From NCBI GenBank assembly GCA_016177245.1, contig JACOVR010000046.1:1-25488 (forward strand): a stretch of DNA of 25,488 nt. Direction: 5' to 3'. A model generated the notes under the pieces. The model searched no databases, was not told the origin of the DNA, and saw only the letters and a program-made list of their open reading frames with translations. The stretch comes from Candidatus Wildermuthbacteria bacterium. GTDB taxonomy: Bacteria; Patescibacteriota; Minisyncoccia; Minisyncoccales; UBA10102. A program made the translations under genes and the position numbers. Below are positions 2,013 to 25,488 of this stretch, one piece after another; position 1 is the first letter of the stretch; each line of letters opens with the position of its first letter.

Positions 2013-2899
2013 AACAGGACTACACTATTACAGAACTAGAAAAGAAGGCAAACGAGATCAGACAGGATATTATCAAGTTGCTGGTGAAGGCGGGGTCGGG
2101 GCATTCGGCAGGGCCTTTGGGAATGGCGGATGTGTTTGCCGCTTTTTATTTTCGAGTTCTGAAACATGATCCGAAGCGTCCCGCGTGGAAAGAGCGTGAT
2201 CGGCTCATTCTTTCAAACGGCCATATCTGTCCTGTTCGATACACCGCAATGGCGCATGCAGGATATTTTCCAAAGTCGTGGCTCGCAACTTTCAGGAAGA
2301 TAAACTCAAAACTCGAAGGCCACCCGTCTTTTAAGAAAATTTCCGCGTTGGAAACATCATCGGGTCCCCTAGGCGAAGGATTGTCGCAGGCCTGCGGGTT
2401 TGCCATGGCTGCAAAAATGGACGGCATGCAGCATACGTATCACGTATGGTGCGTGACGTCAGACGCAGAACATCAGGAGGGTATGACATGGGAAGCAGCA
2501 ATGTTTGCAGGGAAAAACAGGCTGAATAATCTGACCGTGATCATTGACCGCAACAACATTCAAATAGACGGGTACACGGAAGATGTCATGCCCCTGGAGC
2601 CCTTGCGGGAGAAATACGAGGCGTTTGGTTGGCATGTCATTGATATGAACGGACATGATATGGCAGAGATTATTTCTACGTTTCAAGAGGCAAAAGCAAT
2701 TGCAGAGAAACCCGTATGCATCATTGCGCACACCATTCCAGGCAAAGGAGTTTCTTTCATGGAAAAGGATTATAAATGGCACGGAGTTCCTCCGGGTACT
2801 GCCATTCCAGGCGAACCTGAAAAAGAAAAACAGGCACAGATCGCATTGCGCGAGCTCCGCACCCTGGGAAAGAAAATTGAAGCAGCAGACCTTGATTAA
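2009..2899 (+). CDS. tkt: Transketolase, N-terminal (TPP-binding) subunit
   Basis: SGHSAG, RDRLILSNGH, LEGHP, SSGPLGEGLS, TPP motif variant SDAEHQEGMTWEA...IDRNNIQIDG, KGVSFME...WHG. Confidence 0.95.
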   Translation: MKQDYTITELEKKANEIRQDIIKLLVKAGSGHSAGPLGMADVFAAFYFRVLKHDPKRPAWKERDRLILSNGHICPVRYTAMAHAGYFPKSWLATFRKINSKLEGHPSFKKISALETSSGPLGEGLSQACGFAMAAKMDGMQHTYHVWCVTSDAEHQEGMTWEAAMFAGKNRLNNLTVIIDRNNIQIDGYTEDVMPLEPLREKYEAFGWHVIDMNGHDMAEIISTFQEAKAIAEKPVCIIAHTIPGKGVSFMEKDYKWHGVPPGTAIPGEPEKEKQAQIALRELRTLGKKIEAADLD

Positions 2900-3870
2900 T
2901 GAACTATTTTTTGGCAAAAAACTATCTGGATGAAAAGAAGGTAGAGTGGAAGCCCATGCGCGACGGCGCCGGCATTGGCATGGCAGAGCTGGGAGAAACC
3001 GCAAAAGACATGGTGGTGCTGGGTGCAGATACCATAGAATCTTCCCGTGCGCATTACTTTGCGAAAAAATTCCCAGAGCGTTTCATTCAGTGCGGCGTAG
3101 CAGAGCAGAACCTTATTGGCATCTCTGCCGGTTTGTCGTACCAGGGGAAGGTTCCGTACGCCGTCACCTATGCTCCCTTTCTTATAGGCCGCCCATGGGA
3201 GCCCATTCGCACCATTATCGCGTACCCTGAACGGCACGTGGTGTTTGTTTCTTCTCATGCGGGTCTTGCAACGGGCCCCGACGGACCCACTCATCAGATG
3301 ACGGAAGACATTGCAATAACCCGCTGCCTTCCCGGATTTACCGTGATTGCGCCCGCAGATTATGAACAGGCAAGAAAAGCGGTACAGGCCGCATATTCTC
3401 TGAAAGGGCCAGTGTATATTCGCAACGCAAGAGAGAAGACGCCCTTGTTTACCACAGAGAAAACTCCTTTTGAGGTGGGCAAGGCGCAGGTGCTACGAGA
3501 GGGGAAAGGCGCCACGCTCATTGGCCACGGATATATGGTCTATCGGTTATTACAAATCGCAGAAGAATTGAAAAAGGAAATCTCCTTGGAGGTTATCAAT
3601 CTTCACACGATAAAGCCGCTTGACGGAAAGACAATCTTGGCATCTGCAAAGAAAACAGGACGGGTATTCTGCGCAGAAGACCACAATGTTATAGGCGGCA
3701 TGGGAAGCGCGGTTGCGGAGTTTCTTTCGCAAAAACATCCGGTTCCCATGAAATTCCACGGCGTGCAGGACATATTTGCCGAGTCGGGCTCTGTAAAAGA
3801 TTTATGGAAAAAGTACGGCCTCGACAAAGCCGGAACAAAAAAAGTACTTCTTGAGTTCCTGAAAAGGTAA
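2899..3870 (+). CDS. tkt: Transketolase, C-terminal subunit
   Basis: RFIQCGVAEQN, GPDGPTHQ, GPVYIR, TIKPLD, EDHNVIGGMG; TAATG stop/start coupling to the N-terminal subunit. Confidence 0.95.
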   Translation: MNYFLAKNYLDEKKVEWKPMRDGAGIGMAELGETAKDMVVLGADTIESSRAHYFAKKFPERFIQCGVAEQNLIGISAGLSYQGKVPYAVTYAPFLIGRPWEPIRTIIAYPERHVVFVSSHAGLATGPDGPTHQMTEDIAITRCLPGFTVIAPADYEQARKAVQAAYSLKGPVYIRNAREKTPLFTTEKTPFEVGKAQVLREGKGATLIGHGYMVYRLLQIAEELKKEISLEVINLHTIKPLDGKTILASAKKTGRVFCAEDHNVIGGMGSAVAEFLSQKHPVPMKFHGVQDIFAESGSVKDLWKKYGLDKAGTKKVLLEFLKR

Positions 3871-3911
3871 CAGCCGGACGGCTAGCAATGGTCGTCAGAT
3901 GTATATAACCT

Positions 3912-3933
3912 ATATTTACGATCGTGAGTATTG
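3912..3933. repeat. Palindromic site, copy 1 (ATATTTACGATCGTGAGTATTG)
   Basis: Dyad centred on CGATCG 3919-3924; 3913-3933 matches 4570-4590 at 18/21 nt. Confidence 0.75.
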
Positions 3934-3938
3934 ATTAC

Positions 3939-4526
3939 ATGGAAGATGAAAAATTTAAGAAAGGCGAATTGCTGAAAAAGTTGCTTCGTATAGCCGGCAC
4001 TGGTTTAATTTTGGGTGCGGCGGTAACGATGCCAGGTATACTTCTTGCGGTAAAACCTTTCTTGCAGAACAAGAAAACTTCGTATCAAGCGCTTTCACGG
4101 GCATACAGAATGCTTGTGCGGAAAAAATTTGTTCGCGTGATGAAAAACGGAGATGTATTCAAGCTCGAAATAACCGAGGAAGGGAAACGCCGATACAAGG
4201 AATATCAGTTGCACCATGCAATAAAAGATTTGAAAATCTCAGAACCAAAAACGTGGGATCGCAAATGGCATTTGCTCATTTTTGATATTCCCGAGAAGCG
4301 CAGGGCAGCGCGTGATGCCTTGAGAAATTTTTTGGGGCATCTTGGATGCTATCAATTCCAGAAAAGCGCGTTTTTGCATCCGTTTAATTTTGAAAACGAA
4401 ATTGATCTCCTCGCGGATATGTTCCACATCCAAAAATATGTCACGTGTTTCACGATCGATTCAGAAAGAGTCCCGCATGAAGTCGCGTTTCATTTCGCAA
4501 AACTGTTATCGGGGTATATCACCTAG
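3939..4526 (+). CDS. wHTH plus PaaX-central/Cas2-like domain protein (putative regulator or nuclease)
   Basis: wHTH-like ALSRAYRMLVRKKFV...LEITEEGK; WDRKWHLLIFDIPE...RDALR..L..LG.YQFQKS signature. ATG 3939 preferred over the track GTG 3924, which lies inside the palindrome. Confidence 0.8.
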   Translation: MEDEKFKKGELLKKLLRIAGTGLILGAAVTMPGILLAVKPFLQNKKTSYQALSRAYRMLVRKKFVRVMKNGDVFKLEITEEGKRRYKEYQLHHAIKDLKISEPKTWDRKWHLLIFDIPEKRRAARDALRNFLGHLGCYQFQKSAFLHPFNFENEIDLLADMFHIQKYVTCFTIDSERVPHEVAFHFAKLLSGYIT

Positions 4527-4550
4527 GAAAGATAAGGAGGAAAGATAGGG
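4525..4550. repeat. 13-bp tandem duplication AGGAAAGATAAGG/AGGAAAGATAGGG
   Basis: 4525-4537 and 4538-4550 match at 12/13 and start within the stop codon of the PaaX-like gene. Confidence 0.55.
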
Positions 4551-4568
4551 AACCGTGTAAATTAACCC

Positions 4569-4590
4569 GTACTCACGATCGTGAGGATTG
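4569..4590. repeat. Palindromic site, copy 2 (GTACTCACGATCGTGAGGATTG)
   Basis: Perfect 14-bp palindrome CTCACGATCGTGAG at 4572-4585. Confidence 0.8.
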
Positions 4591-4637
4591 GTTAGGGTTG
4601 TGTTTGTTTTGGTGAAATTGTTGTGACGAGTGACACG

Positions 4638-4646
4638 TGGTATACT
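4638..4646 (+). promoter_or_regulatory. Extended -10 promoter (TGG-TATACT); probable leaderless start
   Basis: TG at 4638-4639, TATACT at 4641-4646, ATG at 4653 (+7). Confidence 0.65.
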
Positions 4647-4652
4647 GATATA

Positions 4653-5636
4653 ATGGTAAAACCAAAGTTTGATCTCATTTCCGTAGGCGATACGCAGTAT
4701 GACGTGTTTCTTGAATTGGAAGAAGAAACGAAGGTTCTGAAAGACCCAGAATCCGGAATAGATTATTTGGGTCTGGTGTTTGCAGAAAAGATTCCTGCAA
4801 AGTCGTACACAAGTGTAGCTGCGGTAGGGAATTCCGCAAACGTTGCCATTGGAGCTTCGCGCCTTGGATTAAAGTCTGCATTCTACACGCACCTGGCAAA
4901 AGACACCATTGGGAAAGAAGAAATTGAAGTGTTTAAAGAAGAGAAGGTTTCCACGGACTATGTGGTATGGGATTCAAAGCGCGGCAGCAACTTTTCTGCA
5001 GTGCTCAATTACAAAGGAGAGAGGACTATAGTGGTGCATCACGAGCCACGGGATTACAACCTGCCCAAGTTAGCTCCAGCGAAATGGCTGTACTACAGCT
5101 CTCTTGCTCCAGGCCATGAAAAGCTCCATGCCCAAATTCCAGAGTATGTAAAGCAGTATGGAGTGAAGCTTGGGTTTAATCCAGGATCTCACCAATTAAA
5201 AGAAGGGCTTTCAGTAATGAGTCCCATTATGCAGGTTTCAACTGTGTTTTTGGTGAACAAAGATGAAGCGAAAGAGCTTCTGGGGAATTCAGACGATATC
5301 AAAGAGCTTCTGCAAGGGTTAAAGAGCAAGGGGCCCGAGATCGCAGTCATTACTGACGACGGCAATGGATCATACTGTTTTGATGGTATAAACTTTTATC
5401 ATCTGGATATTTTCCGTGTCCCCGTGATTGAAATGACTGGAGCGGGAGATGCGTATTCCACCGGGTTCGTTTCTGCCCTTGCTTTGGGCCTTGATGTAAA
5501 AGAAGCGATGAGATGGGGAGCAATGAACGGAGCCTCTGTCATTCAGAAGATCGGAGCCAGAGAGGGGTTGTTAACAAGAAAGGCAATGGAAACGCTCTTG
5601 GAGCAGAATAAGAGTTTTCAGCCGGTAGTGTTTTGA
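4653..5636 (+). CDS. PfkB/ribokinase-family carbohydrate kinase
   Basis: GNSANVAIGASRLG, FNPG, NKDEA, anion-hole motif TGAGDAY; ATG 4653 preferred over GTG 4623. Confidence 0.92.
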   Translation: MVKPKFDLISVGDTQYDVFLELEEETKVLKDPESGIDYLGLVFAEKIPAKSYTSVAAVGNSANVAIGASRLGLKSAFYTHLAKDTIGKEEIEVFKEEKVSTDYVVWDSKRGSNFSAVLNYKGERTIVVHHEPRDYNLPKLAPAKWLYYSSLAPGHEKLHAQIPEYVKQYGVKLGFNPGSHQLKEGLSVMSPIMQVSTVFLVNKDEAKELLGNSDDIKELLQGLKSKGPEIAVITDDGNGSYCFDGINFYHLDIFRVPVIEMTGAGDAYSTGFVSALALGLDVKEAMRWGAMNGASVIQKIGAREGLLTRKAMETLLEQNKSFQPVVF

Positions 5637-12363: not shown

Positions 12364-12983
12364 TGCTGCTCGCAGAAAGAAAGAAGCGGGCAGCCAGGAT
12401 TATTAAGAAACTCAAGGAACTTTTCCCTCGGGCAGGGATTGTTTTGAGGTACGGAAGCAATTGGGAGCTTTTGGTCGCCGTTATCCTTTCTGCGCAATGT
12501 ACAGACAAGAAGGTGAACGAGGTGACCGCGCGGCTCTTCAAAAAGTATAGAACCCTTGGCGACTACGTGAAAGCTGCTCCGAGAGAGTTTGAGAAAGACA
12601 TCCATTCTTGCGGGTTTTTTCGCAACAAAACACGAAATATTCTTGCTATAGCAAGAATATTACAACAGCGATTCGGCGGGAAAGTTCCTCGAACTATGGA
12701 AGAATTATTGACTCTTCCTGGCGTTGCTAGAAAGACCGCAAATGTTGTACTAGGGAATGCGTATGGCGTGGTAGAGGGGATTGCGGTAGATACCCATGTG
12801 CGTCGGATTTCGCAAAAACTCGGCTTAACCAGTCATTCAGACCCCGTGAAGATTGAGCAGGACTTGATGAAGCTTATTCCCAAAAAGGACTGGTTTTTCT
12901 TTACCTATGGTATGATTGAGTACGGCAGAACATATTGTTCAGCTCGCAACCATGATTGCGCAAAACATCCCTCTCTCATCTAA
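12363..12983 (+). CDS. nth: Endonuclease III (HhH-GPD glycosylase/AP lyase); FeS motif incomplete
   Basis: LLVAVILSAQCTDKKVN, GFFRNK, HhH LPGVARKTANVV (catalytic K), AVDTHV (catalytic D). Confidence 0.95.
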   Translation: MLLAERKKRAARIIKKLKELFPRAGIVLRYGSNWELLVAVILSAQCTDKKVNEVTARLFKKYRTLGDYVKAAPREFEKDIHSCGFFRNKTRNILAIARILQQRFGGKVPRTMEELLTLPGVARKTANVVLGNAYGVVEGIAVDTHVRRISQKLGLTSHSDPVKIEQDLMKLIPKKDWFFFTYGMIEYGRTYCSARNHDCAKHPSLI

Positions 12984-15258: not shown

Positions 15259-15294
15259 TCAAATATTGCTATAGCAATAAAAGATGAGATATTG

Positions 15295-24640: not shown

Positions 24641-24760
24641 GTTTACAATGATTTATCATCAAGTTCATGTTCTCATTATTGTTTGGTAGAATAATCTAGC
24701 GATCGCTATATTATTCTGATACTTTTGAGAAAGAGAATTTTATGATACGATGTTTTCGTT

Positions 24761-25488
24761 ATGAAGCTTTCTTGCGGCATTGTGGGGCTGCCTAACGTGG
24801 GAAAATCAACCTTGTTTCAGGCGCTCACAAAAAAACAGGTGAATATCGCAAACTATCCCTTTGCAACCATTGATCCCAACGTGGGCGTGGTTGAGGTGCC
24901 CGACGAGCGCTTGCAAAAACTCGCGCAGCTCTCAAAATCGGCAAAAATTATTCCCGCCGTGGTTGAGTTTGTTGACATTGCAGGGCTTGTAAAGGGAGCC
25001 AACAAGGGCGAGGGATTGGGAAACAAATTTTTGGCGAGCATCAGAGAGGTCGCGGCCATTGTGCAGGTGGTGCGCGCTTTTGAAAACGCAGACATTATTC
25101 ATGTAGAAAAAACTGTTGATCCCCTGCGCGATATTGATACCATTACCACCGAACTTCAGCTCAAAGACCTTGAAACGAAAGAAAAGGGGAGCGAGATACC
25201 AGAGATGCAGCTTTTGGCGAAGAAGCCCGTGATCTATCTGCTGAACGCAGACCCCAAGGAGGTTGCCCAAGAACTTTTGGAGAAAATCAAAAACTTGGGA
25301 GGCCTGCCTGCCGGTAGGCAAGGAGCGGTTGTGGTAGCAAACCTCAAAGACGAGCTTGAGATGCAGCCGCTTTCAGAAGAGGAGCGAAAAGAATTTGGTT
25401 TTGTTTCTCATCTTCCCGAGCTTATTACAAAGGCATACGAAATTTTAAATCTTATTACTTTTCTCACCACCGGCCCCGATGAAACACG
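24761..25488 (+). CDS. ychF: Obg-family ATPase YchF, 3' partial (absent from the ORF track)
   Basis: Hand translation: [49 protein letters not shown], start of [15 protein letters not shown]; open to the window end. Confidence 0.95.
25303..25323. repeat. Palindromic 21-nt element CCTGCCTGCCGGTAGGCAAGG inside ychF
   Basis: TGCCTGCCGGTAGGCA (25305-25320) is self-complementary apart from one G-T pair; encodes LPAGRQG. Confidence 0.7.

Follow-up and report, generated by a model that had tools for sequence, protein, structure and literature searches.

A contig of 25,488 nucleotides (nt) from the genome of a Candidatus Wildermuthbacteria bacterium, an ultra-small organism of groundwater, carried (the whole contig is referred to here as the window) a gene for a small PaaX-like protein (mini-PaaX) enclosed by two copies of the same palindromic sequence, or dyad. 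We found that the placement of a mini-PaaX gene between its own pair of palindromes was the rule in a family of genes from Patescibacteria. At the locus in the window, the two dyads, the gene, and a candidate promoter were inserted as a unit in this lineage between tktC and pfkB. We incline toward the view that the unit is a portable, self-contained cassette for an autoregulated repressor whose operators bracket its own gene. The parent genome was a 364-kb assembly in 49 contigs that was 75% complete and about 91% coding, and the window was its contig C17.

The arrangement at the locus read as it had been described when only the letters of the DNA were considered. Specifically, the 21-mers at positions 3913-3933 and 4570-4590 were identical at 18 of 21 positions, were centered on CGATCG, lay 657 bp apart, and enclosed one gene (3939-4526). 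The match between the upstream and downstream flanks of this gene scored 14, and the 95th percentile for the other genes in the genome was 10. The 11-mer ACGATCGTGAG had nine exact copies in the 364-kb genome, compared to about 0.2 expected by chance according to our own estimate. The 8-mer ACGATCGT had 27 copies, about 16 of which were intergenic and several of which flanked other paralogs; the motif was not private to the mini-PaaX gene in the window. A weaker internal copy was also present as the original prediction had stated (TCACGATCG at 4450-4458, part of TCACGATCGA), but it was probably incidental because an internal site was not a feature of the family (3 of 88 cassettes versus 1.8% in the null). 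The idea that the sites might be sensitive to GATC methylation fared poorly: a search of the incomplete assembly revealed neither a Dam-type (PF02086) nor an N4/N6 (PF01555) methylase, and GATC and CGATCG occurred at the expected frequency, with observed-to-expected ratios of 0.94 and 1.08, respectively.

A tblastn search of the genome with the mini-PaaX protein yielded 12 paralogs, which were at most 49% identical to one another. A 13th paralog (C47:14334-14753) had an internal deletion that removed beta1 and alpha1 of the Cas2-fold domain, and a 27-nt repeat still bracketed the gene. When the flanks were printed, all of the paralogs had a 20- to 40-nt sequence with a palindromic core before the start codon and after the stop codon, and this sequence differed from paralog to paralog; the cores included TTGCTATAGCAA, TTGCTGCAGCAA, TTGCGATCGC, ACGGCCGT, ACATATG, and several variants of ACGATCGT. 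Each gene in the genome was then given a score for the best ungapped alignment of its two flanks. A score of at least 13 was obtained for 8 of 9 listed paralogs and for 3 of 328 other genes. The top-scoring "other" gene was the deleted family member on C47, and the proportions therefore became 9 of 10 testable family members and 2 of 327 other genes. Two further observations were made near paralogs. The downstream copy at the C47 gene shared 20 identical nt (TTTACGATCGTGAGTATTGA) with the upstream dyad in the window, yet the winged helices of the two proteins belonged to different subfamilies. In addition, a short tandem repeat of AGACATAAACT / AGACATAAGCT units (C21:2165-2215) was located directly upstream of the palindrome of cassette C21.

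Homologues of the protein were found only in Patescibacteria-type records, where they were named Cas2, PaaX-like repressor, or hypothetical protein. Their copy number was patchy and ranged from 0 to 14 per genome across 40 related genomes belonging to one family of bacteria. For a comparison across the phylum, we assembled 114 members (28 loci of relatives, 80 contigs chosen as one genome per species, and the genome's own 13, minus those without 200 nt on both sides) and compared them with permuted pairs that combined the upstream flank of one member with the downstream flank of another. An upstream/downstream match of at least 12 was present in 81% of the members and 5% of the permuted pairs, and a match of at least 14 was present in 70% and 0.9%, respectively. 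Thus, the expectation that homologues would each have their own flanking palindrome pair was borne out, and the palindrome differed from gene to gene. Across the family, the median palindrome centers were 49 nt before the ATG and 37 nt past the stop codon, and palindromes reached 40 to 60 nt. The orientation of neighboring genes, about 68% of which were co-directional on both sides, was uninformative.

Despite their variety, all of the cores could be read as versions of C-N4-G in which the adjacent positions vary by subfamily. Read outward from the center, the half-site was T-[C/A]-G-[C/T/G], and the third position was G in 68 of 70 half-sites. The original prediction had proposed testing whether the palindrome co-varies with the recognition helix. 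The alignment columns most tied to the variable site position were residue 48, which immediately precedes the recognition helix, residue 60 in that helix, and residues 73-77 of the wing. All of them are in the winged helix, but the signal followed clades. A residue-to-base recognition code was sought and rejected because no rule emerged. At the genome level, TGCKATMGCA sites had a mean of 4.9 per genome in relatives with the family, compared to 1.0 for a reversed-pattern control; in relatives without the family, the means were 1.7 and 1.3, respectively. We treated this link as supportive only because related genomes are not independent samples.

The arms of the palindromes provided information on how the sites are maintained. 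When the two copies flanking one gene were compared over 599 arm positions, 481 positions were the same, 54 had changed on one side, 50 had changed on both sides and still paired, and 14 had changed on both sides without pairing. About five compensated changes would be expected if the two sides changed independently (our estimate); therefore, each palindrome copy is kept self-complementary while the copies drift apart. The same pattern was observed between genomes. Cassette C11 had a syntenic orthologue that was 63% identical in the closest relative (G001), and the palindromes of the two differed by paired changes: the center was TATA in one and TGCA in the other, and a C...G pair in the arms was replaced by A...T.

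The position of the upstream palindrome was equally regular. Of 92 cassettes, 79 had a -10-like hexamer between this palindrome and the ATG (median distance to the palindrome center, 24 nt). The hexamer ended 5 to 9 nt before the ATG in 29 of those 79, a spacing suggestive of leaderless transcripts. The upstream palindrome would thus fill the -35 region and would not be transcribed from that promoter. Arm mismatches on the sense strand showed no clear wobble bias (56 of the G-T type and 39 of the A-C type; p = 0.10), and the sense-strand hairpins at the locus were as stable as those of shuffled sequence (z -0.2 and -1.1). Because of the lack of wobble bias, the position of the upstream copy ahead of the -10 box, and the unexceptional hairpins, we favored a role at the DNA level and concluded that the palindromes are maintained as DNA.

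The original prediction that the protein joined a winged helix to a PaaX-central/Cas2-like fold with an acidic IFDIP motif was consistent with profile and structure comparisons. The match to PaaX_M (PF20803) was strong (E 4.9e-22; 78.3 bits versus a cut-off of 24). PF07848, the N-terminal winged helix of PaaX, gave no match at E <= 0.1, and PaaX_C (PF08223) gave no match; the protein ended about 20 residues past the PaaX_M domain. The PaaX equivalog TIGR02277 scored 25.7 bits versus a cut-off of 264.55, and both Cas2 profiles were below their cut-offs (PF09827, 16.6 versus 23.8; TIGR01573, 23.9 versus 24.5). An AlphaFold2 model built from a 26-sequence alignment had a mean predicted local distance difference test score (pLDDT) of 86. 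In this model, a winged helix (residues 10-78; helices 10-20, 31-42, and 49-61 and wing 65-78) was followed by a linker helix (80-97) and the Cas2-fold PaaX_M domain (104-177), which had a beta-alpha-beta-beta-alpha-beta order at 109-174. Helices 1 and 2 of the winged helix were unusually hydrophobic and were modeled at a pLDDT of 55 to 75. A membrane anchor was considered for this N-terminal stretch, which the model made helices 1 and 2, albeit at lower confidence. The top Foldseek match was PaaX (8a39; E 7.6e-5, 189 columns aligned), followed by MarR/PadR-type winged helices, the PaaX-like structures 3l09 and 3kfw, and Cas2 chains; Roquin ROQ was among the weak matches. Based on the model, we conclude that the protein is probably a truncated PaaX-type winged-helix/Cas2-fold protein.

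The residues that were most conserved were in the Cas2-fold domain. D107, D116, R125, and S143 were invariant, and Q141 and E154 were nearly so. D116, which corresponds to the beta1 Asp of Cas2 and lies in the sequence FDIPE, was found in 68 of 68 aligned relatives; a 275-aa PaaX-type relative had FAVPE, with Ala at this position. A prediction of the homodimer as a two-copy complex gave a score of 0.14, which was no answer and was used neither for nor against dimerization. The original prediction had also noted the absence of cas1 and of a CRISPR array, and this stood: PF01867 was not found in the 75%-complete assembly, and nothing CRISPR-like was present in the window.

To survey empty sites, we searched for pfkB in the bacterial family and identified 24 related genomes that had both pfkB and tktC at the locus. 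In about 20 of the 24, the tktC stop and the pfkB start overlapped or were at most 30 nt apart, often as ATGA; only the window's genome had 782 nt between the two genes (3871-4652), and these contained both dyads, the mini-PaaX gene, and an extended -10 box. The prevalence of empty junctions among the 24 genomes identified the gene and its two dyads as an insertion, which split an operon whose translation is coupled in the relatives. The relatives would lack an intergenic pfkB promoter because tktC and pfkB overlap, and a pfkB promoter within the insert would be needed because the insertion split the operon. A mobile cassette in the carbon operon, with empty junctions that retained a single site, had been one of two hypotheses in the original prediction. 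The insertion stood; the single site did not, as the empty tktC-pfkB junctions of the relatives contained no palindrome. GGTAA was present at both junctions of the insert, and the nearest empty sites were too diverged to judge whether it is a target-site duplication.

The closest relative, whose pfkB was 91% identical, had an unrelated open reading frame (ORF) at the tktC-pfkB junction (G001:C2:97142-97337; locus L040, 1287-1500); its product of about 65 aa contained several Cys residues, and the N-terminus was hydrophobic. The junction would thus be a recurrent insertion spot because a different small ORF sits there in this relative. In another genome (G046), folP-folK occupied the junction. 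The sites syntenic to cassettes C37 and C21 were empty in the whole G001 genome and had no solo palindrome; at the C21 site in G001, the upstream gene ran directly into the rpsT promoter. Cassette C43 was located within a three-gene insertion relative to G001.

In groundwater metagenome contigs from four runs of two studies (2017 and 2020), the cassette was unchanged, and we detected neither excised or circular forms nor a joint in those runs, the samples of which were taken three years apart. Thus, the circular junction reads anticipated by the original prediction did not materialize. Three apparent joints were considered as excision products and rejected. Their short sides were 24 to 27 nt at 90% likeness, and they came from other organisms because their loose ends matched relatives in which tktC abuts pfkB. 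Genes for a tyrosine recombinase, a Y1 transposase (PF01797), and Cas1 were not found in the assembled 75%-complete genome.

Palindromes of the same kinds were also found away from mini-PaaX genes. The genome contained eight perfect palindromes of at least 22 nt, compared to about 0.1 expected by chance, and most had family cores. The dispersed solo cores included eight copies of TGCTATAGCA and five copies of TGCTGCAGCA, compared to about 0.35 expected (both expectations are our estimates); the solo copies shared only the core, and their arms differed. Two palindromes were noted within genes. One was a 26-nt perfect palindrome, AATATTCTTGCTATAGCAAGAATATT (window 12636-12661), in the endonuclease III gene nth, the length of which was unchanged. 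At this site, 19 relatives encoded NILAAAKM[VI]K and had palindromic arms of at most 5 nt, compared to NILAIARILQ here, with four or five residues changed. The left arm was the ancestral coding sequence, and the right arm had become its mirror, an outcome expected of template switching at a quasi-palindrome. The other (C20:2985-3020) had a TGCTGCAGCA core, spanned about 36 nt, and was imperfect. It coincided with an 8-aa in-frame insertion, PIVLPLLQ, relative to G001, in a gene (C20:2469-3746; 425 aa) whose G001 orthologue was 56% identical.

Several additional palindromes were recorded. In the window, a solo 16-nt palindrome at 15264-15279, TATTGCTATAGCAATA, had the core of paralogs C23 and C11 and ended 12 nt before the start of rtcB (15292). 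A solo 30-nt palindrome at 24688-24717 with one mismatched pair had the center GCGATCGC, which is the core type of paralog C43, and ended 43 nt upstream of an ATG at 24761. Dyads of the ACGATCGT type preceded genes of the pentose-phosphate and nucleotide pathways at C28:1089-2084 and C8:8060-13463; from their translations, we take these genes to encode a 6-phosphogluconolactonase, a 6-phosphogluconate dehydrogenase-like protein, a dCTP deaminase-like protein, and a dCMP deaminase-like protein. These dyads could represent a small regulon or could just reflect the gene content of a tiny genome. Finally, a 36-nt GC-rich perfect palindrome, CCCCTGGCAGACCGTTCGCGAACGGTCTGCCAGGGG (C20:10086-10121), had a core unlike that of the family and may be related to the LPAGRQG-type element at window 25303-25323.

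The features of the locus are listed in Table 1. An alternative GTG start for the mini-PaaX gene was present at 3924. Beyond pfkB, the right side of the locus contained genes for a 2-hydroxyacid dehydrogenase and then a bacterial-type PGI. If the candidate TATATT sequence served as the -10 box of the cassette gene, the transcript start would be placed within the upstream dyad. From the extended -10 box TGGTATACT, transcription of a leaderless pfkB mRNA would begin at the ATG (4653). Scans for promoters and T-run terminators called nothing at either dyad, and Rfam gave no match within 3500-5000.

Table 1. Features of the mini-PaaX locus and its neighbors (positions in the window)
Feature	Position	Strand	Remarks
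tktC, transketolase C-terminal subunit	2899..3870	+	Pfam Transket_pyr and Transketolase_C; left neighbor of the insert
Inserted cassette, 782-nt segment	3871..4652		No counterpart at the tktC-pfkB junction in about 20 of 24 related genomes
Upstream dyad	3903..3940		Degenerate palindrome of about 38 nt; only the core ACGATCGT (3918-3925) is perfect; center 17 nt before the ATG
Candidate -10 box of the cassette gene, TATATT	3911..3916	+	Inferred by reading the sequence; not called by a simple promoter scan
mini-PaaX gene, 195 aa	3939..4526	+	Sole ORF between the dyads; Pfam PaaX_M
Internal half-site TCACGATCGA (TCACGATCG at 4450-4458)	4450..4459		Inside the mini-PaaX coding sequence
Downstream dyad	4570..4590		Perfect 14-nt palindrome CTCACGATCGTGAG (4572-4585); center 52 nt past the stop codon
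Extended -10 box TGGTATACT	4638..4646	+	Inferred by reading the sequence; within the insert, 7 nt before the pfkB ATG
pfkB-family sugar kinase	4653..5636	+	Pfam PfkB; right neighbor of the insert; 91% identical to the G001 orthologue

In the repressor cassette that we favor, the protein would dimerize via its Cas2-fold domain, as PaaX-type proteins do, and would bind the CGATCG-centered dyads at both ends of the gene as double-stranded DNA. Binding to the upstream dyad, which would overlap the gene's own promoter, would result in autorepression. The downstream dyad is 62 nt ahead of the putative -10 box that the cassette supplies to pfkB, and binding there may block read-through or loop to the upstream site. 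Autoregulation was the other hypothesis of the original prediction, and the anatomy of the family fit it, with a winged helix in the protein and upstream palindromes just ahead of a -10 box; at the locus itself, the promoter is a putative one. A number of observations weighed against this reading. At a distance of 62 nt, the downstream dyad is not close enough to simply occlude the pfkB -10 box. The arms, at 15 to 25 nt, extend well beyond the contacts of a winged-helix dimer, and because these long arms are kept palindromic by compensation, something more must be at work, whether a hairpin, a cruciform, or a process that makes palindromes. The cassettes C17, C47, and C45 had different winged helices and almost the same core, and the association between residues and sites followed clades and gave no simple code. 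Solo palindromes were located between convergent genes and in coding sequences, where no operator is expected. Finally, the Cas2-fold domain may do more than dimerize because it, rather than the recognition helix, contained the most conserved residues and because a PaaX-type protein had Ala at D116.

These points raise an alternative that we consider unlikely but far from negligible, namely, that the family is a selfish, REP/RAYT-like palindrome system built on the Cas2 fold. The palindrome would be recognized, probably as a hairpin or cruciform, and the acidic site would nick or cut it; cutting would drive the copying, insertion, or writing of palindromes and the movement of the gene with its two ends, and any regulation would be secondary. 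Such a system would account for the invariance of D116 (68 of 68), the Cas2 beta1 Asp that was replaced by Ala in the PaaX-type relative, as well as for the patchy copy number (0 to 14 per genome), the presence or absence of cassettes at syntenic sites, and the dispersal of solo palindromes with paralog cores (TGCTATAGCA, eight copies; TGCTGCAGCA, five copies). It would also fit the 50 compensated positions versus about 5 by chance, the 26-nt palindrome written into nth without a length change, the palindrome of about 36 nt that came with an 8-aa in-frame insertion, and the finding that the assembled genome revealed no tyrosine recombinase, Y1 transposase, or Cas1 gene that could move the cassette instead. 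However, the identity of at most 49% between paralogs and the sharing of only the core among solo copies gave no sign of recent copying like that in REP/IS families. To our knowledge, no Cas2-fold protein acts as a transposase, and neither an excised form nor a joint was detected in the four runs. Moreover, template switching at quasi-palindromes could keep the arms palindromic without a dedicated enzyme. We also entertain, as rather doubtful, a specific scheme in which the Cas2-fold domain is catalytic: the protein would recognize the C-N4-G core and nick the DNA or stall replication, template switching would write and lengthen palindromes, including the one in nth, and the gene would move with one such palindrome at each end, which would make it an analogue of REP/RAYT on a fold used in CRISPR adaptation. 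We retained the selfish alternative, at the low standing given above, because a repressor leaves unexplained why the arms are long and co-vary, why palindromes occur alone and within genes, and why the acidic site is invariant.

The co-variation of the arms, with pairing preserved, might also be expected of an RNA-level module in which hairpins at both ends of the transcript are bound by the protein for stability, termination, or translation. In relatives, some downstream copies had a GC stem with an A-run on one side and a T-run on the other and thus resembled bidirectional terminators. In addition, RNA can be bound by the ferredoxin-like Cas2 fold and by certain winged helices (Roquin ROQ). 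Nevertheless, we regard this idea as improbable: the G-T and A-C mismatches (56 versus 39; p = 0.10) did not indicate a clear wobble bias, the upstream copies were mostly ahead of the -10 box and so outside the gene's own transcript, the hairpins at the locus were no stabler than shuffles, no T-run terminator was called at the dyads, and Rfam had no match. Still less credence was given to the suggestion that the palindromes are generic intergenic signals or sites of another factor that adjoin the gene by coincidence, or that the match at the locus is due to chance. Sites of the ACGATCGT type were indeed common in the genome, and many were not beside a paralog. On the other side were the matching flanks of 9 of 10 family members versus 2 of 327 other genes, the much higher frequency of own pairs than permuted pairs across the phylum, and the related sites with compensated changes that the orthologous cassettes of the window's genome and G001 had kept.

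The closest characterized relative is PaaX, the phenylacetyl-CoA-responsive repressor of paa operons (E. coli W structure 8A39; PaaX-like structures 3L09 and 3KFW), which binds a partly palindromic operator at promoters, its own included. The two have in common an N-terminal winged helix, predicted in mini-PaaX, followed by a Cas2-like PaaX_M domain and a WDxKW...PExxRxxRDxLR motif. In contrast to PaaX, mini-PaaX has about 195 aa, is without PaaX_C, is far below the TIGR02277 cut-off, and keeps the Cas2 Asp (FDIPE rather than the FAVPE of the PaaX-type relative). Its gene is beside tkt and pfkB rather than paa genes, and a single tiny genome can contain as many as 14 such genes, every one bracketed by a palindrome pair of its own. 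Mini-PaaX resembles Cas2 in its ferredoxin-like fold, in a beta1 strand ending in Asp, and in the Q-S-V-[FW] strand motif that follows, and databases sometimes label it Cas2. It differs in that it falls below both Cas2 cut-offs and is fused to a winged helix; in addition, cas1 was not detected in the 75%-complete assembly, and the window lacked a CRISPR array.

As in REP/RAYT systems, the gene is flanked by palindrome copies, cores of the same type are also dispersed in mostly intergenic solo copies, and different paralogs pair with different palindromes. However, the mini-PaaX protein is unrelated and has no HUH/Y1 domain (PF01797 was not found in the genome), the copy number is low (4 to 27 per type), the solo copies share only an 8- to 12-nt core, and the flanking copies are direct repeats of 20 to 40 nt. 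GalR (OE/OI) and LacI (O1/O2) are two-operator autoregulated repressors that loop DNA, and they likewise have dyads at two positions around a transcription unit. Here, the second site is past the 3' end of the regulator's own gene, and looping is a proposal only. A preprint reports that the winged-helix protein HlyU acts on a DNA cruciform (bioRxiv 10.1101/2022.03.07.483294). Mini-PaaX might be analogous as a winged-helix protein with palindromic DNA that could extrude as a cruciform, which is hypothetical here. A further difference from GalR, LacI, and HlyU is that genomes gain and lose the mini-PaaX unit in its entirety. A literature search that covered few subscription journals found no description of a gene placed between its own palindromes.

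Patescibacteria have very small genomes and few recognizable regulators, and the 13 cassettes took up about 2.5% of the assembled DNA in this tiny genome. If they are regulators, they would represent a major family of regulators that had so far escaped notice in the phylum, as well as a natural plug-in repressor that brings along both its operators and a promoter for the downstream gene. If the Cas2-fold domain is active on DNA, the Cas2 fold would be linked to sequence-specific palindromes outside of CRISPR, which would bear on the origin of the adaptation module. Under either reading, the presence of its own site on both sides of each gene would provide hundreds of natural protein/site pairs for examining how this fold reads DNA.

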